Shown: positions 37,366 through 48,298 of the stretch, in pieces | Layout: each line of letters begins with the position of its first letter | How positions within the stretch are numbered: the first letter of the stretch is position 1 | Assembly: GCA_030693325.1 (NCBI GenBank) | Contig: JAUYAV010000019.1 | Span: 134,618-198,617, forward strand | Length of the DNA: 64,000 nucleotides | From: a bacterium | GTDB lineage: Bacteria; Patescibacteriota; Minisyncoccia; UBA6257; MFKM01 | Direction: 5' to 3' | The notes under the pieces: generated by a model | Seen by the model: only the letters and a program-made list of their open reading frames with translations | Told to the model about the DNA's origin: nothing | Database searches by the model: none | Program-made: the position numbers and the translations under genes

Positions 37366-37900
37366 ATTGGATTATTTTGTTATTATAAGAGCAATGACTA
37401 ATTTTAAGCAAGAATTGATGAAAAAATTGTCATTTGTTTTATTGATATTAATAATACCAGTTACGGGTCTGGTTTTTTTGGGTACAGACATCGGGCACCG
37501 AGCTGAAACGACCAAGACACAGCGGCAAAGCTTAGCGGATCACTCTGAAAGCTTGTCGCTCTATGCGAAGTTGCAAAGCCAATCTGTTGAAGCTGAACCC
37601 TATATCAGTGTTTTACAGAATGTGCTTCCAATCAGAGACCGTCTTCTTGATTTTCAAAAAGAGATGGAACGGTTGGCGACTCAATCGGGAGTGGGTTTCG
37701 GATTTAATTTTATGGCAGAGACGCCATCAACCGCCACTGCGGCGGGCCGGATGGGATTTACTATGGTCAGTCAGGGCTCAATTTCCAAAATTTTTAACTT
37801 TATTAAATTAATGGAAAACAGCCGGTTCTTGGTGAGTTTCAGTAATTTTGATTTCACCGGTTCAACGGCAAATATCAACGGTGAAGTTTTATTCCATTAA
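37358..37900 (+). CDS. Hypothetical protein with an N-terminal TM anchor (the start is probably internal, MTNFKQEL)
   Basis: ORF only. Confidence 0.35.
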   Translation: MFKLDYFVIIRAMTNFKQELMKKLSFVLLILIIPVTGLVFLGTDIGHRAETTKTQRQSLADHSESLSLYAKLQSQSVEAEPYISVLQNVLPIRDRLLDFQKEMERLATQSGVGFGFNFMAETPSTATAAGRMGFTMVSQGSISKIFNFIKLMENSRFLVSFSNFDFTGSTANINGEVLFH

Positions 37901-37911
37901 ACTTATAAATT

Positions 37912-38130
37912 ATGCCGAAAACAAAACAAGTAAAATCCAACCAGGAATTGACTTTTTTGATAGTAGCGGTTTTAATGTTAATTATCCTTATTACTGTCAT
38001 ATCTTGGAATTTGGGTTTTCTGGCTAAAAATTTGAATATGGCCTTGAATCCCAATGTTTTGAAAGAGCCAACGGTTGACCAATTTAACATTGATGGGTTC
38101 AAAGCATTGGGCCTGACAAAATCTTTATAG
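37912..38130 (+). CDS. Small hypothetical membrane protein
   Basis: One TM helix. Confidence 0.3.
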   Translation: MPKTKQVKSNQELTFLIVAVLMLIILITVISWNLGFLAKNLNMALNPNVLKEPTVDQFNIDGFKALGLTKSL

Positions 38131-38147
38131 CAGTAATTTTGGCGTGG

Positions 38148-38219
38148 GGGTGTGTAGTTCAGTGGTAGAACGCTGTCCTGATAAGACAGAGGTCGGAGGT
38201 TCGATCCCTCCCACACCCA
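38148..38219 (+). tRNA. tRNA-Ile (anticodon GAT)
   Basis: Manual fold: acceptor GGGUGUG/CACACCC; anticodon loop CUGAUAA; T-loop GGTTCGATCC; no encoded CCA. Confidence 0.75.
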
Positions 38220-38261
38220 CTGGAAGAGTTCATTAATAATTCAGTTAAAAAGGAGGAAAGG

Positions 38262-38867
38262 ATGAAACGGATTAGAGCTTATTTTTACGCGGGAATAATT
38301 TTAGTTTTGCCTTTGGGGTTATTGCTGTTTATTTTATCCTGTTTGGTAAAGATTTTTAAAAATATTTCTTCGGCAATCGGTTTAAAGACGGTCATTTTCA
38401 GCTTGGTAGCAAAATTGCCGTTGCCTTCGTTTTTATTGGCAACCGGAGAATGGTTAGAATGGTTGTTGATTGCCGTTAGTATCGCGGCAATTCTGATATT
38501 TTTGGGATGGTTCAGTTCAAAAATAGGGAAAAGAATAATTGAGTTTTTAGAAAGGGCGATTAAAAAAATTCCGCTGATTGGCTCTCTCTATTTTACTTTT
38601 AGAGAAACGGCGAAACTCACTCTTAAAGAAAAAAAGGCCTTTAGGGAGGTAGTCAAGGTGCAAGTTATTGAGGGAATCCAGAGTATCGGGTTTGTGGTCC
38701 AGAGAAAGGATACAAAGGTAGTTGTTTTTATTCCTTTTGTTCCAAATCCCTTAACTGGCATCACGATTATTGTTGATAGTAGTCTGGTTATTCCTACAGG
38801 TTTAAGCGTTGAAGAAGGAATGAGATGGATGATCAGTTTTGGCGCCTCTCCTGATTTATTATCCTGA
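38262..38867 (+). CDS. Membrane protein (DUF502-like)
   Basis: Two N-terminal TM helices plus a soluble domain; strong SD AAGGAGGA. Confidence 0.4.
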   Translation: MKRIRAYFYAGIILVLPLGLLLFILSCLVKIFKNISSAIGLKTVIFSLVAKLPLPSFLLATGEWLEWLLIAVSIAAILIFLGWFSSKIGKRIIEFLERAIKKIPLIGSLYFTFRETAKLTLKEKKAFREVVKVQVIEGIQSIGFVVQRKDTKVVVFIPFVPNPLTGITIIVDSSLVIPTGLSVEEGMRWMISFGASPDLLS

Positions 38868-38932
38868 TATATCAAGCGAATCCCGCCAGTTCATGATGGA
38901 CTGGTGGGATTTTTTATTTTAAAATTATATCT

Positions 38933-39415
38933 ATGATTCTTTTCGCCCACGTTGTTTTCGCCGATGCCGTCAGTTCCGCGGGAAATTTTCCTTGGCCGAT
39001 GGCTTTTTTGTTCGGTTTAATATCCCATCATTTGTTGGATTTCATTCCTCATCTTGACGCCGGTTGTGTCTGGCCGGAAAAAGACAGAGATGCCGGCACA
39101 ATGCCCAAAGCAGTTGTAATTTTTATTGCCGCTGACGCTTTATTGACATTGGGGTTTTTAATTTGGTGCGCTTTTTTTCTGAAAATAAATTGGGCTATTT
39201 TGTTCTGGGCGAGTTTTGGCGCGGCTTTGCCGGATTTAATCGTCACCGGCTTTCCTTTTTTCATTCCTAAAATTAAATCTTGGCCATGGGTGAAAAAATA
39301 TGAAAAATTCCACTATAGCCTTTTTGACCACTTAGGCATTTCCACTAATTGGATTTTTGGCATTTTTAGCACTATATTGATAATCGGAGTTTCTTTTTGG
39401 TTGTTGCTGAAATAA
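38933..39415 (+). CDS. Hypothetical polytopic membrane protein
   Basis: Four or five hydrophobic helices. Confidence 0.4.
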   Translation: MILFAHVVFADAVSSAGNFPWPMAFLFGLISHHLLDFIPHLDAGCVWPEKDRDAGTMPKAVVIFIAADALLTLGFLIWCAFFLKINWAILFWASFGAALPDLIVTGFPFFIPKIKSWPWVKKYEKFHYSLFDHLGISTNWIFGIFSTILIIGVSFWLLLK

Positions 39416-39419
39416 ACAG

Positions 39420-39491
39420 GGGCCCGTAGTTCAGTGGTAGAACGCCTCATTTGCAATGAGGAGATCAGCGGTTCGATCCCGCTCGGGTCCA
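39420..39491 (+). tRNA. tRNA-Ala (anticodon TGC) with the G3:U70 identity pair
   Basis: Manual fold: GGGCCCG…CGGGUCC acceptor with G3·U70; anticodon loop UUUGCAA. Confidence 0.8.
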
Positions 39492-39602
39492 CAGGAACAA
39501 AGATTATTTCTTCCCAATTTTATGCTGTGGATAACTTGCTTTGGACTTTCTATTTACTTTCTAGTATACTGAAGCTGATAGTGAAAAGTTAATCCACACA
39601 TT

Positions 39603-41078
39603 ATGCTTACTAAACGCCAAAAACAAATTCTCGATTTTATTACCGACTATCAAAAACGAAAAAGGTATGCCCCCACTCTTGAAGATATATGCAAAAAATT
39701 TAAACTTGCATCGGTTTCAACGGCTCATTTTCATATTTCCAAACTTCGTGATTTGGGATATTTAACGAAGGAAGAAAACAAGCCTCGTTCCATCTCTGTT
39801 TCGAAACACGAGCAAATGGTTAAAATCCCTCTTTTGGGGACCATTGCCGCCGGACAACCAATTGAAGCAATCCAAAACAAAGAAATGATTGCGGTTCCCA
39901 AAAGTATGCTTCCACGTTCGTCGGAAGTATACGCGCTCCGCGTTGTTGGAAATAGTATGATTGACGAGAATATCAACGACGGCGATATCGTTTTAGTAAG
40001 ACAACAAGAAACAGCGGAGAATGGGCAAAAGGTCGTGGCGCTTATTGATAACCACGAAGCAACGCTCAAAAAGTATTATCAAGAGCGAGGACATATTCGC
40101 CTACAACCAGCTAATAAAAATATGGAGCCGATCATATTGCGAAATGGTCGGGATATTTCCATACAAGGAATAGTGCTTGATGTGATCAGAGATGCTGGCA
40201 CAGCTACTCTTAAGAAAGAACAAGTGAAAATGTATTCCGATACAAAACTATTAAAAAATACGCTTATATCTAAACCATATTATGAAAAACCAAAATTCAA
40301 ACTTTACCAAGCAAACTGCTTGGACATTCTTGCCAAACTTTCTGAAAATTCTGTTGATATGATTTTTGCCGATCCCCCCTATAATCTTTCAAACGGAGGC
40401 ATTACCGTTCACGCTGGACGAATGGTTAGCGTCAATAAAGGAGATTGGGACAAGAGCAAGGGATTCAAAGATGATTACGATTTTCATTACAAATGGATAG
40501 ATGCCTGTCGGAGAGTTTTAAAACCCCATGGTACACTTTGGGTTAGTGGCACTTACCATTCAATTTATCAATGCGGTTATGCTTTGCAGTCACTTGGATA
40601 CCAAATTCTAAACGATGTCGCTTGGTTCAAACCAAACGCATCGCCGAATTTAAGTTGCCGATATTTTACGGCAAGCCATGAAACTTTACTTTGGGCGAGA
40701 AAGGATAAAAAGGCAAAACATATTTTCAATTATGCTTTAATGAAAAATGGCAACTGGCCGGAAGATCAGCTAAAAAAACCAGGGCTTCAAATGCGTTCGG
40801 TTTGGGCGATGGGAACACCGAAAACAATTGAAAAAAGATTTGGAAAACATCCTACGCAAAAACCGGAAGATTTACTAAAACGAATCGTGCTTGCCTCAAC
40901 TAACAAGGGCGATTTAGTTGTTGATCCATTCACTGGAAGTTCAACAACTGGAATTGCCGCCTATCTTTTGGGACGGCACTTTATCGGTGTTGATACTGAA
41001 CCAAAGTATTTGGATGTATCAATAAAGCGATTTGAGGAATTGGATCGCAATCTAAAAAATAAATACAAAAAAGTATGA
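39603..41078 (+). CDS. Fusion protein: a full LexA-like repressor (wHTH, Ala-Gly cleavage site, S24 Ser/Lys peptidase) joined to a beta-class N6-adenine (DPPY) DNA methyltransferase
   Basis: LexA part: LGTIAAGQP, VVGNSM and ATLKKY. MTase part: IFADPPYNLS (motif IV) followed by VVDPFTGSSTTG (motif I). Confidence 0.8.
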   Translation: MLTKRQKQILDFITDYQKRKRYAPTLEDICKKFKLASVSTAHFHISKLRDLGYLTKEENKPRSISVSKHEQMVKIPLLGTIAAGQPIEAIQNKEMIAVPKSMLPRSSEVYALRVVGNSMIDENINDGDIVLVRQQETAENGQKVVALIDNHEATLKKYYQERGHIRLQPANKNMEPIILRNGRDISIQGIVLDVIRDAGTATLKKEQVKMYSDTKLLKNTLISKPYYEKPKFKLYQANCLDILAKLSENSVDMIFADPPYNLSNGGITVHAGRMVSVNKGDWDKSKGFKDDYDFHYKWIDACRRVLKPHGTLWVSGTYHSIYQCGYALQSLGYQILNDVAWFKPNASPNLSCRYFTASHETLLWARKDKKAKHIFNYALMKNGNWPEDQLKKPGLQMRSVWAMGTPKTIEKRFGKHPTQKPEDLLKRIVLASTNKGDLVVDPFTGSSTTGIAAYLLGRHFIGVDTEPKYLDVSIKRFEELDRNLKNKYKKV

Positions 41079-41590
41079 AAACAAAAGGAATAGGCGGAGG
41101 CAATACGATAACAGGGCTCAACTTTGAGAAAGAACGCGATATCTTGGCAATTCTTAAGAAAGCGAAAGATTATTCCGTAAAAGGCAATGTCATTTACTAT
41201 CAAGGAAAAGAAGTAGCTAGAAGTTATCGCAAGCAAGGTTTATATAAATTCTTAACAGGGGAGGGCGTTGATTGGCGAAAACTTATTTCAAAGCGTCTTT
41301 TACCGGACGAAGCCTTGTATGTGATTGCGAATAACACTCTTTTTATTATTGAGATGAAATTTCAAAAAGTCGCGGGTTCGGTTGATGAAAAGTTACAAAC
41401 CTGCGATTTTAAGAAGAAGCAGTACCGCAAACTTATGGCACCGCTGAATATTGAGGTTGAATATATCTATATTCTCAATGATTGGTTTAAAAATCCATCA
41501 TACAAGGATACTCTTGATTATGTTATTTCGGTCGGGTGCCAATACTATTTCAACTATCTCCCTCTTAAAAAATTAGGATTGCCGGTATAA
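41075..41590 (+). CDS. Putative type II restriction endonuclease (PD-(D/E)xK), translationally coupled to the methyltransferase through an ATGA overlap
   Basis: LPDEALYVI…IIEMKFQK gives a P-D…E-x-K arrangement. Confidence 0.5.
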   Translation: MKTKGIGGGNTITGLNFEKERDILAILKKAKDYSVKGNVIYYQGKEVARSYRKQGLYKFLTGEGVDWRKLISKRLLPDEALYVIANNTLFIIEMKFQKVAGSVDEKLQTCDFKKKQYRKLMAPLNIEVEYIYILNDWFKNPSYKDTLDYVISVGCQYYFNYLPLKKLGLPV

Positions 41591-41606
41591 AGTTTTCTAA
41601 ACTATT

Positions 41607-41807
41607 ATGAAATTTAATCAAGAATGGGATTTTATAACTACCGAAGTCCACGGCGAAAAACCAAGCAAAACAAACCTGTCCAAAAGAGAAATATTATTTG
41701 CTCTGCAAATTCTGCTAACCAAAATTGGGCGAACAACCGAAATAAGCAAAATGCATTTTTTAAGAGAAAATTATTTCAGCTTAAAAGAGGCATACTTTCT
41801 CGCATAG
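41607..41807 (+). CDS. Small hypothetical protein (uncertain; overlaps an alternative-frame ORF)
   Basis: ORF only. Confidence 0.2.
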   Translation: MKFNQEWDFITTEVHGEKPSKTNLSKREILFALQILLTKIGRTTEISKMHFLRENYFSLKEAYFLA

Positions 41808-41943
41808 AACCAAAGGACTTTGGCGATAAAGAAACATATCCTCAATTTCAATTATGGTATGTTTAGCAAAAAAGATTTTTGAAACTAGAGAACAAGTAGT
41901 GTAAAATTAACCCCAAAGGCATACTTCAATTAAAATAATCCAA

Positions 41944-42129
41944 TTGGAGATAACATTTATGGCAATCTTAATTATCTATATAGCAATTTCTCTGGCGATG
42001 GGTGTGAATATAGAAAAATCGATAAATTCCTCAAATTATAAACGTCCATTAGCGGTGAGAATCGGCTTATATATTACAGCGATAATGCTACTTATACTTT
42101 TAGCCAAAATACTGAAAATAAATTTATGA
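41944..42129 (+). CDS. Small membrane protein
   Basis: Two TM helices. Confidence 0.35.
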   Translation: MEITFMAILIIYIAISLAMGVNIEKSINSSNYKRPLAVRIGLYITAIMLLILLAKILKINL

Positions 42130-42192
42130 ATACAAGGGGAATAATTAAAGATTTTTTAATAAAATATAAATAGGTTAAATATATTTAAAATT

Positions 42193-42384
42193 ATGAACAT
42201 TCAAGTGATATTTACTCTGGCCGTGGTAATTATTTTAATAGTAGCAGCTCTTTACTTTAAGCCACTAAGAAAAGCGATAGGTTTATTGCTTGTCATTTTA
42301 GGTACGCTTGTGAGCTTGACGGTTATTGGTTTAGTCTTAGGTATACCAACGATAATTATTGGTGGTCTTTTATTATTTATTTAA
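42193..42384 (+). CDS. Small membrane protein
   Basis: Two TM helices. Confidence 0.35.
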   Translation: MNIQVIFTLAVVIILIVAALYFKPLRKAIGLLLVILGTLVSLTVIGLVLGIPTIIIGGLLLFI

Positions 42385-42614
42385 TGAATAAAATTAAAGA
42401 ATATAAGTGGATTATTTTAATAACACTTCTAATTTTAGGGTTTAGTTTTTATTGGTTTTCGTGGAGACCAAGTGAAATCCGCAAAGATTGTTTTCAAAAA
42501 GAGTATAGCTATGTTTACTACCCAACATCTGAAAGCAACCGGCTTGTAGGAAATGCATTGGACTTTAATTACGAGTATCTAAAATGTGTTCGTTTTTTCG
42601 GGTTACCAAATTAA
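42384..42614 (+). CDS. Small protein with an N-terminal TM anchor
   Basis: ORF overlaps the previous stop (ATGA). Confidence 0.35.
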   Translation: MNKIKEYKWIILITLLILGFSFYWFSWRPSEIRKDCFQKEYSYVYYPTSESNRLVGNALDFNYEYLKCVRFFGLPN

Positions 42615-42880
42615 TTATGGATTTTTGTCATTTTAATTGTCAATTTAGAGGAGAGGTAAAAAAAATTAATAACCATTTTTATATTTTAAAAAATAGGTAT
42701 GCTTTGCCACCGCTGACTAAAATGCCCAAGTTAAATCCCTTACCAGTTATTTCTATACCAGCTCCTCAATCAAATATTCCTCCAATTACTCTTAGTATTG
42801 AGTCGGTAGATGGTTTTTAGGTATTGACTAATCTTGGCCATGCGGCCTTAAGTTGTAATAAATTTTTTGTAAGGAAGGAT

Positions 42881-42918
42881 AAAAGCGCCCGCCTATCAGT
42901 AGGCGGTTTTTTATTTTT
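42881..42918 (+). terminator. Rho-independent terminator at the end of the island
   Basis: aaaagcgcccgcctatcagtaggcggttttttattttt. Confidence 0.65.
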
Positions 42919-42929
42919 TGCTAAAGAAA

Positions 42930-42992
42930 ATGCCCTTGGATTTGGAAAAACTTAATAAAGAGCAAAAAGGAGTAGCGAAAGCTAGGGTATAG
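42930..42992 (+). pseudogene. 5' fragment of the UvrD-like helicase gene (MPLDLEKLNKEQKGVAKARV*), ~42 nt near-identical to 44216-44257
   Basis: Direct comparison shows 3 mismatches over 42 nt, followed by divergence and an in-frame stop. Confidence 0.6.
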
Positions 42993-43088
42993 CGAAAAAC
43001 AAGTACTTCAATAACTGATTGAGGTATTTTTATTAATTCCACCGAGCAAGCTCCATAATCCAAAAATTCGTGGTAAAATGATAAAAAT

Positions 43089-44216
43089 ATGGAGCCGTTA
43101 GCATCAAAAATAAGACCGAAAATTTTGGAAGAATTTGTCGGTCAGGAGCATTTAGTCGGAGAAGGAAAGCCTTTTAATATAGCTATAAAACAAAAGCATT
43201 TGTTTTCTTTTATTTTATGGGGGCCTCCTGGAACCGGAAAAACTACTTTGGCCAAGATATATGCCAATAGTCTGAACGCAAAAATTTATGAATTGTCCGC
43301 GGTTTCGGCCGGAAAAGCGGATATCAGAAAAATACTAGAAGAAGACTCGGACGGAGTTCCTAAAGTTTTATTTTTAGACGAAATACATCGCTTTAATAAA
43401 TCCCAGCAGGACTTTCTGCTTCCTTATGTTGAAAGAGGGGAGATAATTTTGATTGGCGCCACTACCGAAAATCCGAGTTTTGAAGTGATATCGGCTTTGC
43501 TTTCCCGATGCCGAGTTTTCGTTTTAAATGAACTTTCAGAAAATAACATAAAGGCCATTATTAAAAGAACCGGAATGAAAATGGATGAAGCGGCGGAAGA
43601 TTGGCTGGTAAATGCGGCCAATGGCGATGCCAGACAAGTAATAACTTTGTTGGAAAACACCAGCGAACTTTATAAAAAGATTACGGTGGAAAATTTAAAA
43701 AACGTTCTCCAATCAAAGTTTTTGAGATACGACAAAGTCGGGGAAGAACATTACAACACTATTTCCGCCTTTATCAAAAGCATGAGAGCGAGCCAGCCTG
43801 ATGCGGCTTTGTATTATTTGGCTCGGATGATTGATTCCGGCGAAGACCCAAAATTTATAGCCAGAAGAATGGTTATTTTTGCTTCCGAGGATATTGGTTT
43901 GGCTCAGCCCACAGCCTTAGTAGTGGCTAATGATGTTTTTCGGGCCGTGGAAATAATCGGTCTGCCCGAATGCGGTATTAATTTGGCTCACGGAGTAGCT
44001 CATCTGTGCCAGTGTAAAAAAGACAGAAGAGCCCATGATGCTTATATGGAAGCGATGGAAGACGTAAAAAATTTCGGCAATCTTCCTATCCCTTTAAGTT
44101 TGCGGAATCCTGAGACAAAATTAATGAAAGATTTAAATTACGGCAAAGGATACGAAAAATATTCCAAGGAATCTTTTCTGCCCGAAAAATTAAAAGGAAA
44201 AAAATATTTAAAATAA
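43089..44216 (+). CDS. rarA: Replication-associated recombination protein RarA/MgsA (AAA+)
   Basis: WGPPGTGKTTLA; FLDEIHRFNKSQQD; MgsA C-terminal helical domain. Confidence 0.9.
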   Translation: MEPLASKIRPKILEEFVGQEHLVGEGKPFNIAIKQKHLFSFILWGPPGTGKTTLAKIYANSLNAKIYELSAVSAGKADIRKILEEDSDGVPKVLFLDEIHRFNKSQQDFLLPYVERGEIILIGATTENPSFEVISALLSRCRVFVLNELSENNIKAIIKRTGMKMDEAAEDWLVNAANGDARQVITLLENTSELYKKITVENLKNVLQSKFLRYDKVGEEHYNTISAFIKSMRASQPDAALYYLARMIDSGEDPKFIARRMVIFASEDIGLAQPTALVVANDVFRAVEIIGLPECGINLAHGVAHLCQCKKDRRAHDAYMEAMEDVKNFGNLPIPLSLRNPETKLMKDLNYGKGYEKYSKESFLPEKLKGKKYLK

Positions 44217-47200
44217 TGCCCCTGAATCTGGAAAAACTTAATAAAGAGCAAAAAGAAGCCGTGGTTCATGGCCAGGGGCCGCTTTTGATTGTGGCCGGAG
44301 CCGGAACCGGCAAAACGACGGTTATCACCCAGAGAATAGTTAATTTAATTGAAAAGGAGAAAGTTAAACCTGAAGAAATATTGGCCGTCACTTTTACCGA
44401 AAAGGCGGCCGCGGAAATGGAAGAAAGGGTTGATATTCTTTTGCCTTATGGCTATGTGGATTTGTGGATTTCCACTTTCCATTCTTTCTGCGAAAGGGTC
44501 TTGCGCGATTACGCTTTGGATATCGGCTTGCCGGCGGATTTTAAGATTTTAGACAACACGGCCGGCTGGCTTTTGGTTTATCGCAATCTGGAAAAATTCA
44601 ATCTCGATTATTACAAACCCCTGGGGAATCCGACCAAATTTATCCAGGCCCTGATTTCTCATTTTTCCCATTGCAAAGACCAGGCGATTTATCCCGAAGA
44701 TTATTTAAAATACGCCGAAAAGCTGAAAACCCGGGATGACGCGCCGGAAGAAAATGAAACCGAGAGGATAAAAGAAGTGGCGAACGCTTACCATGTTTAT
44801 CAGCGTTTGCTTTTGGAGAACAGTTCTCTGGATTTTGGCGATTTGATAAATTATTGTTTGAAATTGTTTCAGAAAAGGCCGCTGATTTTGAAAAAATATC
44901 GGGAAAAATTCAAATACATTTTAGTTGACGAATTTCAGGACACCAACTGGGCGCAATACGAGCTTATAAAAATCTTAGCGGCGCCGAAAAATAATCTGAC
45001 CGTCTGTGCCGACGATGACCAATGTTTGCCGGGCAATTCAAAAATAGAGATTTTTGAGAACGATAAAATCAAAATAAAGGAAATTAAAAAAATTGAAATA
45101 GGCGATAAAGCATTAACAGCCGTAGGAAAAGGTCATATAGGGGTTGCTAATGTGAATAATGTTTTCGTCAAAAACAAGAGGGCAAAGATATTAACCGTTA
45201 AAACAGAAGGCGGCTATTCAGTAAGCGTGACAGATAATCATAAAATGTTTTGCTGTGTTCCAAGAACTGCTCGGCAGAATTATCATTATGTTTATTTGAT
45301 GTTTAGAAAAAATTTGGGGTGGAGGATAGGGGTAACTGATGATTTAATTTTGCGGCTTAGGATAGAGCGTTCGGCAGATAAAATTTTGGCAATAAGGGCC
45401 TTTAACACTGATTCTGAAGCGAGATATCACGAAACATTGTGGTCGTTGAAGTACGGCATACCCACTTGTTGTTTTAAAAGCAGGGAAGGCATCGTTATCA
45501 AAGAAAATGAGTTGGCTAAATTATATAAGGAAATTAATACCGAAGATAATATACGGAAATTAGCTCAAGATTTAAATATTGACTTAGATTCGCCCCATTA
45601 TTGTCTAGATGCCGTTAACAGGGGAAGAAGCGTCAGGATAATCATCAATTTGCAAATGTGCTACAGAAATTACCGAAGCAAGGAACACGTCAGAAGCGAG
45701 AAAACTCTGCTTTTGAATGGCTTGACAAGGCACAGGCTTTATTTGGAAACGTCAGACAAGCAAACAATTAAGAAGCTAAAAACAGCAGGATATATTCTTT
45801 ATAAAGCGAGGAAAGGAATGAAATTAAACATAGAAGGAGGCGATGTAAAAGATCTTGAAGGAAAAGCAAGAGCGATAGAAAAAATTACAGGCGGATTCAT
45901 AGAATATAAATTTAATGTTGCGAGCAAATACAGCAAGCCGTCAGGCACGGCACGAAATTATATGTCTTTGATTATGCCCGCAAAAAATTTAGTTTTAGGA
46001 CACTATCTTCCGGTAAAAAAAGGCGCTGAGATAATTTACGATAAAATAATTTCAATTAAAGAAGTTGATAAAAAAATAAAAGTATATGATTTGGAAATCG
46101 ACAAAACCCATAATTTTATAGCCAACGGAATAGTGGTCCACAATTCTGTTTATAGGTGGAGAGGGGCATCTTATAGCAACATAGTCCAATTCAATAAAGA
46201 TTTCCCGAAAGCCGAGCAAATTTCTTTGGTTAAAAATTACCGGTCCGGCCAGAATATTTTGGATTTGGCTTATAAATTCATAAAAGCCAATAATCCCGAC
46301 CGCCTTGAATACGTAAATAAAATAAACAAGGAATTAATCGCCCAGGAAAAAGGTGAAGGCAAAATAGAGCATATTTTGGCGAAGAACCTGGAAGAAGAAG
46401 TTGATAAAACAATAAAGAAGATCTTAGGGATTCTTAAAAAAGACAAAGACGCCGGTTATAACGATTTTGCGATTTTAGTCAGAGCCAATGACGCGGCCAA
46501 TCCTTTTATTAAGGCCCTGGAGCGCGCGGGCTTGCCTTATCAATTTTTGGCTTCAAGAGGGCTTTATTCAAAGCCGGTTATTTTGGACGTAATCTCATAT
46601 TTCAAACTTTTGGATAATTACCACGAGAGCCCGGCGGTTTACCGGATCTTGAATATGCCATTTTTGGAAATCCCGCCCGCGGATATTATGAAGCTTACTC
46701 AATACAGCCACAAAAAAACAAAGTCGCTTTATGAGGCGATGGAAGAGCTTCCTCTAATTCCGGGAATTTCTCCGGAAGTTCAGGAAAAAATCCTTTTCGT
46801 TTTGAGCTTGATTAAAAAACACGCCATTTTTGCCAAAGAAAAATCGGTCTCGGAAATAATGATTGCATTTCTTAAAGAGTCGGGATATATAAAATATTTA
46901 ACGAAAAAAGACGACAAAGAACAGTTTGATTTACTCAATCAATTCCATAAAAAAGTGAAGAATTTTGAGAGTGCGGCAATAGAGCCGACTTTAGGCAATT
47001 TTATGCGGGAAATAAATCTTGAGATAGAATCCGGCGAAGAAGGAAAGCTTGAATTTGACCCCGAGCAAGGCCCGGACATGATAAAAATAATGACTATCCA
47101 CGGAGCTAAGGGCTTGGAATTCAAATATGTTTTTTTGGTTAATATGGTGGATAAAAGATTTCCGACAATGGAAAGAAAGGATTTAATTGAGCTACCCGAA

Positions 47201-48298
47201 GATTTAATCAAAGACATAAAGCCAACTGGGGATGTTCATTTGCAGGAAGAAAGGCGCATTTGCTATGTGGCCATTACCAGAGCCAAGAAAGATATTTATT
47301 TCACTTCGGCTGAAGATTATGGCGGGGTGAGAAAAAAGAAATTGTCTCGCTTTCTGATTGAAATGGGATACCAGGAAAAAACTGAAAAACCGAAAAACTT
47401 AAAAACTCAAAACGAAATGCTCGCGGAGAAACCGATTTCGGTCGGGACAAAAAACAAGCCGATGCCGGATTATCTGCCGAAACATTTTTCGTATTCGCAA
47501 TTGGCGGCTTTTGACAAGTGTCCGTTGCAGTATAAATTCGCTTTTATTCTGAAGGTTCCGACCAGAGGCAAGGCCGTGTTTTCTTTCGGGAAGACGATGC
47601 ATAATACTTTTTATGAATTTTTAAAATACGCCAACGAAGGCAGCGCGAGCAATCAAACAAATTTGTTCGGGTTTGAAGAAAAAACAATTAAGGCCGGTAA
47701 AAAAGCCCTGTCTGCCGGCAGGCATGAAAAATCTTTAGATTTAGACGATTTAACGGAAATTTATGAGAAAAACTGGATTGACGAATGGTATGAGAGTAAA
47801 AAACAAAAAGAGGATTATCGCAAGCTCGGCAGGAAAATAATTAAAGATTTTTATGATGAATTTGTAAAAAATCCGCCGAAAGTTTTAAAAATCAATAATG
47901 CCTTTGCTTTGGAAATGCCGTTTAACCTGAAAATAGGGGGATATGCCTTATACGGCGTGGTGGACAGAATTGATGAAGAGGATGGTGGCGTGACCATCAT
48001 TGATTACAAAACAGGAAATTCTAAAGACAAGCTGTATCCGGGCGATAAAGAACAATTGTTGATTTATCAGATAGCGGCTGAAGAGATATTCAAACTAAAG
48101 CCCCAAAAATTGGCTTATCATTATTTAACCGACGGCAAGAAAGCGTCTTTTCTCGGAACGGAAAAAGAGAAAGAACAGCTGAAAGAAAAAATAATCCAAG
48201 AGATTGAAGAAATAAAAGGCAGTGATTTCAAGGCGAAGCCGAGTCAGCTTTGCGCTTTCTGCGATTTCAAGGATATTTGCGATTCCGCTCAGAGATAG
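44216..48298 (+). CDS. UvrD/PcrA-family helicase fused to a C-terminal RecB/Cas4-like PD-(D/E)xK nuclease (AddA-like). It is interrupted by an intein in helicase motif III.
   Basis: AGAGTGKTT; DEFQDTN; …CADDDQ|C…HN|SVYRWRGAS; C-terminal IIDYKTG and CAFCDFKDICD. Confidence 0.9.
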   Translation: MPLNLEKLNKEQKEAVVHGQGPLLIVAGAGTGKTTVITQRIVNLIEKEKVKPEEILAVTFTEKAAAEMEERVDILLPYGYVDLWISTFHSFCERVLRDYALDIGLPADFKILDNTAGWLLVYRNLEKFNLDYYKPLGNPTKFIQALISHFSHCKDQAIYPEDYLKYAEKLKTRDDAPEENETERIKEVANAYHVYQRLLLENSSLDFGDLINYCLKLFQKRPLILKKYREKFKYILVDEFQDTNWAQYELIKILAAPKNNLTVCADDDQCLPGNSKIEIFENDKIKIKEIKKIEIGDKALTAVGKGHIGVANVNNVFVKNKRAKILTVKTEGGYSVSVTDNHKMFCCVPRTARQNYHYVYLMFRKNLGWRIGVTDDLILRLRIERSADKILAIRAFNTDSEARYHETLWSLKYGIPTCCFKSREGIVIKENELAKLYKEINTEDNIRKLAQDLNIDLDSPHYCLDAVNRGRSVRIIINLQMCYRNYRSKEHVRSEKTLLLNGLTRHRLYLETSDKQTIKKLKTAGYILYKARKGMKLNIEGGDVKDLEGKARAIEKITGGFIEYKFNVASKYSKPSGTARNYMSLIMPAKNLVLGHYLPVKKGAEIIYDKIISIKEVDKKIKVYDLEIDKTHNFIANGIVVHNSVYRWRGASYSNIVQFNKDFPKAEQISLVKNYRSGQNILDLAYKFIKANNPDRLEYVNKINKELIAQEKGEGKIEHILAKNLEEEVDKTIKKILGILKKDKDAGYNDFAILVRANDAANPFIKALERAGLPYQFLASRGLYSKPVILDVISYFKLLDNYHESPAVYRILNMPFLEIPPADIMKLTQYSHKKTKSLYEAMEELPLIPGISPEVQEKILFVLSLIKKHAIFAKEKSVSEIMIAFLKESGYIKYLTKKDDKEQFDLLNQFHKKVKNFESAAIEPTLGNFMREINLEIESGEEGKLEFDPEQGPDMIKIMTIHGAKGLEFKYVFLVNMVDKRFPTMERKDLIELPEDLIKDIKPTGDVHLQEERRICYVAITRAKKDIYFTSAEDYGGVRKKKLSRFLIEMGYQEKTEKPKNLKTQNEMLAEKPISVGTKNKPMPDYLPKHFSYSQLAAFDKCPLQYKFAFILKVPTRGKAVFSFGKTMHNTFYEFLKYANEGSASNQTNLFGFEEKTIKAGKKALSAGRHEKSLDLDDLTEIYEKNWIDEWYESKKQKEDYRKLGRKIIKDFYDEFVKNPPKVLKINNAFALEMPFNLKIGGYALYGVVDRIDEEDGGVTIIDYKTGNSKDKLYPGDKEQLLIYQIAAEEIFKLKPQKLAYHYLTDGKKASFLGTEKEKEQLKEKIIQEIEEIKGSDFKAKPSQLCAFCDFKDICDSAQR
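45023..46144 (+). mobile_element. Intein (~374 aa) with a putative, degenerate homing-endonuclease core
   Basis: Cys1 (CLPGNSKI); block B TDNHKM; C-terminal VVHN followed by Ser+1; the extein motif III DDDQ/SVYRWRGA is restored on excision. Confidence 0.8.

Follow-up and report, generated by a model that had tools for sequence, protein, structure and literature searches.

A probable stranded helicase start upstream of a rarA–helicase gene pair, and a variable cassette slot at tRNA-Ala, in a Nealsonbacteria-like genome

In a 64-kb stretch of bacterial DNA (positions 134,618 to 198,617 of contig JAUYAV010000019.1; referred to as the window, with coordinates counted from its first letter), the first 14 codons of a UvrD-type helicase gene occur twice, once at the intact gene and once as an orphaned copy on the far side of its upstream neighbour rarA. 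Judged by its sequence context, the short copy, together with the hairpin preceding it, is the original upstream region and start of the helicase gene, stranded by the placement of rarA. We assign a probability of about 80% to the reading that this stub is the ancestral helicase start, that a 1.24-kb piece consisting of a spacer and rarA came to lie between it and the full-length gene by an illegitimate join, and that a variable slot next to tRNA-Ala, further upstream, is independent of this event. The best helicase matches were to proteins of Nealsonbacteria and related Patescibacteria, and the source of the window is a Nealsonbacteria-like genome of the candidate phyla radiation (CPR)/Patescibacteria. 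The features concerned are as follows.

42881–42918, + strand: terminator-like hairpin with T-run, ancestral element before the helicase gene, identical in the relative L167
42930–42992, + strand: orphaned helicase start (codons 1–14 correspond to 42930–42971), then unrelated sequence and a stop; 20-codon pseudo-open reading frame
42973–44215, + strand: extra segment B, rarA with the 116-nt spacer before it; its end overlaps the intact helicase gene (TAATG)
42973–43088, + strand: 116-nt spacer, without homologue in the 178 loci fetched or elsewhere in the window
43089–44216, + strand: rarA/mgsA, 375 amino acids (aa), intact (Pfam MgsA_C, AAA_assoc_2, AAA; RuvB_N)
44216–48298, + strand: UvrD-type helicase with C-terminal PD-(D/E)XK nuclease, 1360 aa, intact (Pfam UvrD-helicase, UvrD_C, PDDEXK_1, Intein_splicing)
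44216–44258, + strand: second copy of the repeat, within the helicase gene

The repeated helicase start and its surroundings

Over 40 nt (42930–42969 versus 44216–44255) the two copies differ at three positions, and a second match arose in none of 100 dinucleotide shuffles; with its flanks, the repeat comprises 49 nt at 88% identity (42924–42972 versus 44210–44258). The upstream copy encodes MPLDLEKLNKEQK, then departs from the helicase sequence and runs into a TAG codon at 42990–42992, after 20 codons; the N-terminus of the intact helicase reads MPLNLEKLNKEQKEAV…. The original prediction, made by a model from the letters of the sequence, had described such a repeat with three mismatches and a premature stop, and had the two copies bracket rarA. 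Both descriptions hold, with the complete rarA gene situated between the copies starting at 42930 and 44216. The strong terminator that it placed at about 42881–42918 was likewise recovered, as a hairpin with a stem at 42889–42906 and a T-run after it; the minimum free energy of the extended structure is −17.9 kcal/mol (z = −2.4).

Relatedness to other genomes was gauged from TopA and helicase identity alone, and all relatives are metagenome contigs (locus numbers preceded by L). Among relatives in genome contigs whose helicases are 80–90% identical, synteny was too fluid to be decisive; the question was settled with TopA as the anchor. The TopA search returned a tight group of relatives at 83–89% identity, which includes L167 and L168 (TopA 86%, helicase about 88% identical) and L169 (TopA 87% identical). 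L167 and L168 represent one sequence, obtained from two samples, and only three to four contigs at the genus level were at hand. The window, L167/L168 and L169 have the gene order secY-adk-map-topA-dprA-ORF-tRNA-Ile-…-ORF-tRNA-Ala-(variable)-helicase-DUF2196 in common (ORF, open reading frame), and in L167 the order continues beyond DUF2196 with rluA, rplS, tRNA-Leu and gyrB. At the tRNA-Ala/helicase site, the synteny comparison that had been proposed as a check showed that these relatives keep the flanks and have the hairpin directly followed by the helicase gene, with no rarA, no methyltransferase and no restriction-modification (RM) genes. Between tRNA-Ala and the helicase start there are 500 nt in L167/L168 and 963 nt in L169, compared with 4724 nt in the window. 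Nucleotide homology between the window and L167 is confined to three stretches, namely through tRNA-Ala to 39493, from 42881 to 42972, and from 44215 onward, so that the region is made up of two separate extra segments, A (39493–42880) and B (42973–44215), on either side of an ancestral piece (42881–42972).

This ancestral piece is 84% identical, over 98 nt, to the 5' region of the L167 helicase gene. Within it, the 29-nt hairpin plus T-run CCGCCTATCAGTAGGCGGTTTTTTATTTT is identical in L167, where it stands directly before the intact helicase gene; in the window the same CCGCCTATCAGTAGGCGGTTTTTTATTTT piece leads straight into the orphaned codons 1–14. A hairpin with a T-run 20–60 nt before the helicase ATG was also found in many other loci, including the more distant relatives L001, L003, L010, L012 and L027. 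In the window, the hairpin context is present at the short copy and absent at the intact helicase, and the similarity between the two copies ends abruptly at 42972. The suggestion that the repeat is the scar of a rearrangement is thus borne out, inasmuch as copy and hairpin are orthologous to the native upstream region of the L167 helicase. Among 80 helicase loci and 80 metagenome rarA loci, a second copy of the helicase N-terminus occurs in the window only. L167 has a −10-like element ATACTATA between T-run and ATG; the window stub is without ATACTATA, a loss that would be consistent with a dead start. Compared with L167, three derived bases in the 40-nt stretch are common to the fragment and the resident helicase, which are each other's closest sequence; it follows that the common source of both copies is closer to this genome than L167 is.

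RarA has full-length matches of 81–92% identity in relatives, the closest being that of L085 (92%); an exact look-up of the protein returned no record. The GC contents of rarA and of the helicase gene (0.39 each) are near the window average of 0.41. An extended −10-like motif, TGGTAAAAT, is located at 43071–43079, 9 nt before the rarA ATG; motifs of the TGGTAAAAT type are not enriched in the window, and the rarA promoter is a consensus match only. The rarA stop overlaps the helicase ATG, and the two genes constitute a new pair that is probably co-transcribed. On the other side, DUF2196 starts 16 nt after the helicase gene, as in L167. The helicase is 93% identical to that of L167 at the nucleotide level over the first 72 nt (from 44215) and 84–97% identical in 150-nt windows, outside an intein. 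The latter, indicated by Intein_splicing/Hint matches, occupies about 45029–46144 (aa ~272–643); it is absent from L167–L169 and most loci, and it is found at the same site in L007, L008, L038, L039, L082 and L083.

Apart from the window, rarA is located directly upstream of the helicase gene in L002, where 14 nt separate the rarA stop from the helicase gene, and in L021, and directly or closely downstream of it in L004, L010, L005, L009 and L040. It is absent from the vicinity of the helicase in most other loci, including the closest helicase relatives L001, L003, L082 and L083. The linkage of rarA and helicase seems to be recurrent, yet confined to certain lineages. As a side observation, rarA occurs within 6 kb of the helicase, in either order, in 8 of the 80 helicase loci and in none of the 80 rarA-anchored metagenome loci; neither a nearby helicase nor a stub was seen at any of the latter. 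In L088 (4787–6148), the DUF2196 gene, which is the 3' neighbour of the helicase in the window, stands directly upstream of rarA.

Across 34216–55205 (about 21 kb), the window has 100% identity to a Logan assembly of run SRR13727537, so that the same structure was obtained by a second assembler, probably from the same reads.

Possible origins of the scar

The comparison with L167 shows that the stub is the ancestral start of the helicase gene, stranded when rarA was placed there; the mechanism of this placement is inferred. In the reading that we favour, the hairpin (42881–42918) and the 42-nt copy (42930–42971) would have been left behind as the 1.24-kb segment came between the start and the full-length helicase. 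The outcome would be the rarA–helicase gene pair, with the old start persisting as a dead 20-codon stub behind its own terminator. The junction at 42972/42973 would represent the illegitimate join of two arrangements, "…hairpin-helicase" and "…spacer-rarA-helicase", and the other crossover would lie inside homologous sequence, as in homology-facilitated illegitimate recombination after DNA uptake. We consider this the most likely route because rarA and helicase meet in a neat overlap of stop and start, such as an established gene pair would have, and the left junction is raw. The occurrence of rarA upstream of the helicase in two other loci and downstream of it in five implies that both arrangements circulate in the family. 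As to direction, either rarA and the helicase 5' end would have come into a hairpin-helicase genome, or the RM cassette, the hairpin and a truncated helicase 5' end would have come into a rarA-helicase genome. At the site, homology breaks off abruptly at 42972 and the helicase is continuous; the searches turned up neither a donor nor a partner haplotype on which microhomology could be scored.

Several observations weigh against this interpretation. The partner arrangement of 116-nt spacer, rarA and helicase was not found in any genome searched, and the closest RarA, that of L085, occurs in a different context, on a contig that ends inside rarA. Sliding-window comparison of the helicase with L167 and L169 revealed no mosaic breakpoint. 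Of 40 positions, 3 distinguish the fragment from its own helicase, and 3 of 40 also distinguish it from the helicase of L027; moreover, 31 nt of the stub are identical to the latter, a Staskawiczbacteria helicase. Copy identity was considered as a clock or source marker and discarded as uninformative, since the helicase 5' sequence is so conserved across lineages that identity between the copies can neither date the event nor trace its source. Polarity is set by parsimony only: recombination between the 42-nt repeats would excise rarA and recreate the L167 state, so that polarity rests on the many outgroups with the hairpin-helicase arrangement. Finally, the comparison draws on just three or four genus-level contigs, all of them metagenome assemblies.

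An intragenomic replication template switch, that is, a duplicative insertion resembling microhomology-mediated break-induced replication (MMBIR) or fork stalling and template switching (FoSTeS), is possible, albeit rather improbable in our estimation. Synthesis would have proceeded past helicase codons 1–14, jumped to the rarA locus, copied spacer and rarA, and returned to the helicase ATG; the first 42 nt would thus have been copied twice, and the original rarA would have been lost later. Such a mechanism needs a single event and no donor, and it would agree with a native-like RarA (92% identity to L085, normal GC content), with a helicase devoid of mosaicism, and with the close mutual relationship of fragment and resident helicase in the 40-nt stretch, although the three derived bases common to both copies are compatible with recombination as well as with a template switch. 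However, the return would have had to yield a precise overlap of rarA TAA and helicase ATG, an outcome hardly to be expected of a raw junction. The 64 kb contain neither a second rarA nor a remnant of one.

Tandem duplication of a helicase–rarA (or rarA–helicase) pair, in which the first helicase copy (for the most part) and the second rarA copy later disappeared, would find its starting material in the wider family, in which both gene orders exist (L004, L010, L005, L009 and L040 versus L002 and L021). Such duplication and random loss is very unlikely because L167/L168, L169, L001, L003, L082 and L083 are without rarA on either side of the helicase, because the spacer has no similarity to the 3' end of the helicase gene or to the helicase–rarA spacers of L004 and L010, and because DUF2196 follows directly after the helicase, as in L167, with no rarA remnant between them.

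A similarly small chance is given to the upstream copy having been retained for a function, for instance by encoding a leader peptide or by regulating the rarA–helicase operon. Its ATG and 13 further codons have stayed intact, and of the three differences between the copies, two are synonymous changes in the functional one; three substitutions are too few, however, to reveal selection. Besides, no such copy exists in any other of about 160 related loci, and the stub is situated behind a terminator, with the −10-like element of L167 deleted.

The original prediction had also raised the possibility that the copies are att-like direct repeats, which would imply site-specific integration of a mobile element beside tRNA-Ala. 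The proximity of a tRNA gene, a direct repeat of about 42 nt and the deviant composition of the region would suit such an element, and at L165, which carries a relative of the RM module, a gene for a large serine recombinase adjoins. Nevertheless, the proposal is hardly tenable: the repeat brackets only rarA, a housekeeping gene of normal composition, and not the deviant RM segment; the left copy stands in the native upstream context of the helicase; a second copy is lacking in the ~160 related loci; no integrase or recombinase is called between 34216 and 55205; and a tRNA-derived repeat is absent. Island and repeat are both real, but the repeat does not delimit the RM island, given that 42881–42972 separates segment A from segment B. 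A target-site duplication of the transposon type was rejected as well. Target duplications of transposons are short (2–14 bp) and are accompanied by terminal inverted repeats and a transposase; here, the repeat measures 42–49 nt, the bracketed DNA encodes only RarA, and there are no inverted repeats at 42973/44215. An assembly artefact or chimeric contig, conceivable in principle for a metagenome-assembled genome, is scarcely credible in view of the identical Logan assembly, a 42-nt repeat (92% identity) that is too short and too diverged for mis-joining, and flanking genes that are all intact and syntenic with relatives.

The variable slot at tRNA-Ala and its restriction-modification module

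Upstream of the stranded helicase start, the stretch between tRNA-Ala and the hairpin is a cassette slot, the content of which turns over between lineages, separately from the event that involved rarA. It contains the following features in the window.

39420–39492, + strand: tRNA-Ala(tgc) (ARAGORN; Rfam tRNA, 72 bits), left edge of the variable slot
39493–42880, + strand: extra segment A, RM module plus small ORFs, without homology to L167/L168/L169 between tRNA-Ala and hairpin
39526–39534, + strand: 9-mer TGTGGATAA upstream of the LexA-methyltransferase gene, occurring once in the 64 kb
39603–41078, + strand: LexA (winged helix-turn-helix plus S24 peptidase domains) in frame with a CcrM/DpnA-like DNA methyltransferase of the N6/N4 beta class, to which it is fused, 491 aa (Pfam LexA_DNA_bind, Peptidase_S24, N6_N4_Mtase)
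41075–41590, + strand: PD-(D/E)XK nuclease, 171 aa, probable restriction endonuclease (weak PDDEXK_11 match), start overlapping the methyltransferase stop
41607–41807, 41959–42129, 42193–42384, 42384–42614 and 42584–42820, + strand: five putative small ORFs (ORF lists and gene calls)

The presence of an RM module and three tiny membrane-protein genes 3' of tRNA-Ala had been surmised from the letters, and a methyltransferase gene, the gene of the 171-aa nuclease-like protein and three ORFs with transmembrane-like segments are indeed encoded there. These three, recognized by hydropathy analysis, are the middle ones of the five small ORFs, for which the searches run yielded no family matches. An island edge at tRNA-Ala, also proposed, is confirmed, as homology to L167 and L169 ends at 39493, the 3' end of the tRNA gene, and the segment is absent from these relatives; homology to L167 resumes at 42881. 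The k-mer comparison suggested as a check agrees with a distinct segment: among 303 windows of 3.4 kb in the 64 kb, the stretch 39493–42920 ranks first in tetranucleotide distance. The GC content of segment A is 0.353 versus 0.408 for the window, within the lowest 1.4%, and most of the compositional deviation stems from 41591–42880 (GC content 0.305, 0.2 percentile, the lowest in the window). GC skew, which was to be inspected alongside, does not shift at segment A.

What occupies the slot differs: the RM module in the window, a remnant of DpnI in L167/L168 and an unrelated 223-aa gene in L169. The remnant is a 39-aa ORF (L167 6868–6987, − strand, and the same in L168) that matches DpnI residues 4–31 (PDB 4esj, E = 6.5e-6) and is the sole trace left of a methyl-dependent restriction gene. 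A search for an integrase just outside the window had been advised; inside it, gene calls with Pfam matches between 34216 and 55205 include no integrase or recombinase, and none is among the ORFs of segment A. Nor does a tRNA-derived repeat mark the right end of segment A, the best match to tRNA-Ala in 39493–44300 being 12 nt long (92%, E = 3.7). With neither an integrase nor an att site in evidence, the slot content is likely to turn over by exchange via the conserved flanks.

The two tRNAs were the only known RNA families within 37500–45000. tRNA-Ile(gat), at 38148–38220, and tRNA-Ala(tgc), a pair typical of rRNA operon spacers, are separated by 1.2 kb that hold two membrane-protein genes; rRNA is missing from the surroundings. 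L167–L169 show this arrangement too.

The LexA part of the fusion protein (residues 2–197) scores 194.5 bits against TIGR00498, the cutoff of which is 110.95 bits. The methyltransferase part is supported by matches to N6_N4_Mtase (6.6e-59) and PADLOC MTase_II (7.7e-98) and is closest to CcrM and DpnA; among PDB entries, the fusion matches CcrM (3e-56) and LexA (1e-35). In 42 aligned fusions, A83-G84, S118, K156, the DPPY motif and the S-adenosylmethionine-binding motif I (D-P-F-x-G-S-S-T) are invariant. By analogy to E. coli LexA, we take A83-G84 to be the cleavage site and S118/K156 to be the catalytic dyad. The LexA moiety is apparently complete and self-cleaving, which would imply control of the fusion by DNA damage. 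More than 120 full-length clusters with the same three-domain architecture (62–85% identity; Parcubacteria, Woesebacteria and others) indicate that LexA-methyltransferase fusions make up a large conserved family in CPR bacteria, as judged by domain content; the searchable literature yielded no description of such a fusion.

The 9-mer TGTGGATAA is located 40–86 nt upstream of the fusion start in all six distinct locus types (the window, L164, L165, L166, L171–174 and L175–178), and the sequence around it is not conserved among them. It was the only conserved motif found upstream of the fusion genes, and it is non-palindromic; the SOS box bound by LexA repressors is a palindrome, and LexA cleavage follows activation by RecA. 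TGTGGATAA is the reverse complement of TTATCCACA, the DnaA-box consensus. It may serve as a binding site for DnaA or as an operator of the fusion itself.

The family of the 171-aa protein comprises about 823 representative clusters (50% identity). Conservation is complete at P77, D78 and E93 and almost complete at K95; PDDEXK_11 was matched by 36 of 42 members. The protein is a probable restriction endonuclease. A single-sequence AlphaFold model of it, with a pLDDT of 41, was not usable. Members of the family follow the LexA-methyltransferase gene in L175–178 (labelled Woesebacteria; 89% identity) and are convergent to it in L171–174 (53% identity). In L175–178 the adjacent methyltransferase is only 76% identical, and the disparity to the 89% of the nuclease suggests recent lateral transfer and shuffling of modules. 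In other loci the fusion has different neighbours, namely a MutH-family nuclease in L165 and L166, with a large serine recombinase nearby in L165, and a 142-aa protein of no assigned family in L164. A predicted viral contig carries a version consisting of the methyltransferase only, with the same nuclease family adjoining. Given its methyltransferase motifs and the recurrently adjoining nuclease, 39603–41590 is predicted to be a type II RM module.

There are hints of GATC specificity, though no proof: MutH-family partners occur in relatives, one family member (P0392 of the P0361–P0510 set, 489 aa) is fused to a Dam/DpnM-type methyltransferase, and GATC occurs in the window at 0.33 of expectation. 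On the other hand, the best methyltransferase match, CcrM, is a GANTC enzyme. Relative to base composition, other 4-base palindromes are also strongly depleted throughout the window (CTAG 0.09, GTAC 0.11, TCGA 0.11, ACGT 0.20), and CCGG (4.0) and GGCC (2.75) are enriched.

Comparison with known systems

Homology-facilitated illegitimate recombination in naturally transformable bacteria is defined in PMC3240628, and has been proposed in PMC5361080, which cites de Vries & Wackernagel 2002, Prudhomme et al. 2002 and Meier & Wackernagel 2003, for the displacement of type VI secretion system (T6SS) effectors and for orphaned Rhs fragments. The site described here resembles such scars in having a raw, non-homologous junction beside a homologous one, a truncated orphan beside new DNA, and an intact functional gene. 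It differs from the T6SS/Rhs cases in that the orphan is the 5' stub of a housekeeping helicase and the gene placed is rarA rather than a toxin/immunity module. In contrast to the transformable bacteria in which those scars were described, natural competence is only presumed in the present case. The site provides a base-resolved example of gene-order change in the small, reduced genomes of CPR bacteria.

For the slot itself, the closest parallel is the pneumococcal locus at which DpnI and DpnII reside as alternative cassettes (PMC3573125 and PMC3812788; Lacks et al. 1986 as cited there). Common to both are different restriction cassettes in one slot between conserved flanks of related genomes, and a methyltransferase related to DpnA, with partner nucleases in relatives that point to GATC. 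Unlike at the dpn locus, the methyltransferase is fused to LexA and has CcrM, a GANTC enzyme, as its best match, and DpnI is represented only by the 39-aa remnant. Segment A also resembles tRNA-linked islands, in that it is deviant, begins at a tRNA 3' end and is absent from relatives. It differs from these islands, which depend on tyrosine or serine recombinases, by the lack of an integrase and of a duplicated tRNA 3' end and by its size of only 3.4 kb. Because the cargo differs in each relative, replacement is indicated rather than insertion and excision. Defence genes thus turn over beside tRNA-Ala without an integrase, which is consistent with recombination-driven exchange in organisms thought to be dependent on DNA uptake.

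Control of RM systems by DNA-binding domains is known from C proteins and from the N-terminal helix-turn-helix domains of methyltransferases such as M.SsoII and M.EcoRII. As in these enzymes, a DNA-binding domain is attached to an RM methyltransferase and a conserved sequence is present upstream of the operon promoter; unlike in these enzymes, the domain is a complete, apparently self-cleaving LexA. One might go further and regard the whole slot as the CPR counterpart of the dpn locus, with RM cassettes swapped between lineages by transformation, tRNA and the unusually conserved helicase 5' end serving as recombination anchors, and the stub as the footprint of an imprecise swap; among the cassettes would be the LexA-methyltransferase fusion, cleavable upon DNA damage and with a DnaA-box-like site at its promoter, but we consider this comprehensive view doubtful. 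If it were true, the fusion would couple the levels of restriction and modification to the SOS response and possibly to replication initiation. The two scars, a gene-fragment scar and an integrase-free cassette slot, are further cases of known events, fairly ordinary and without a change of paradigm; the LexA-methyltransferase fusion and the invariant TGTGGATAA upstream of it are the better experimental lead.

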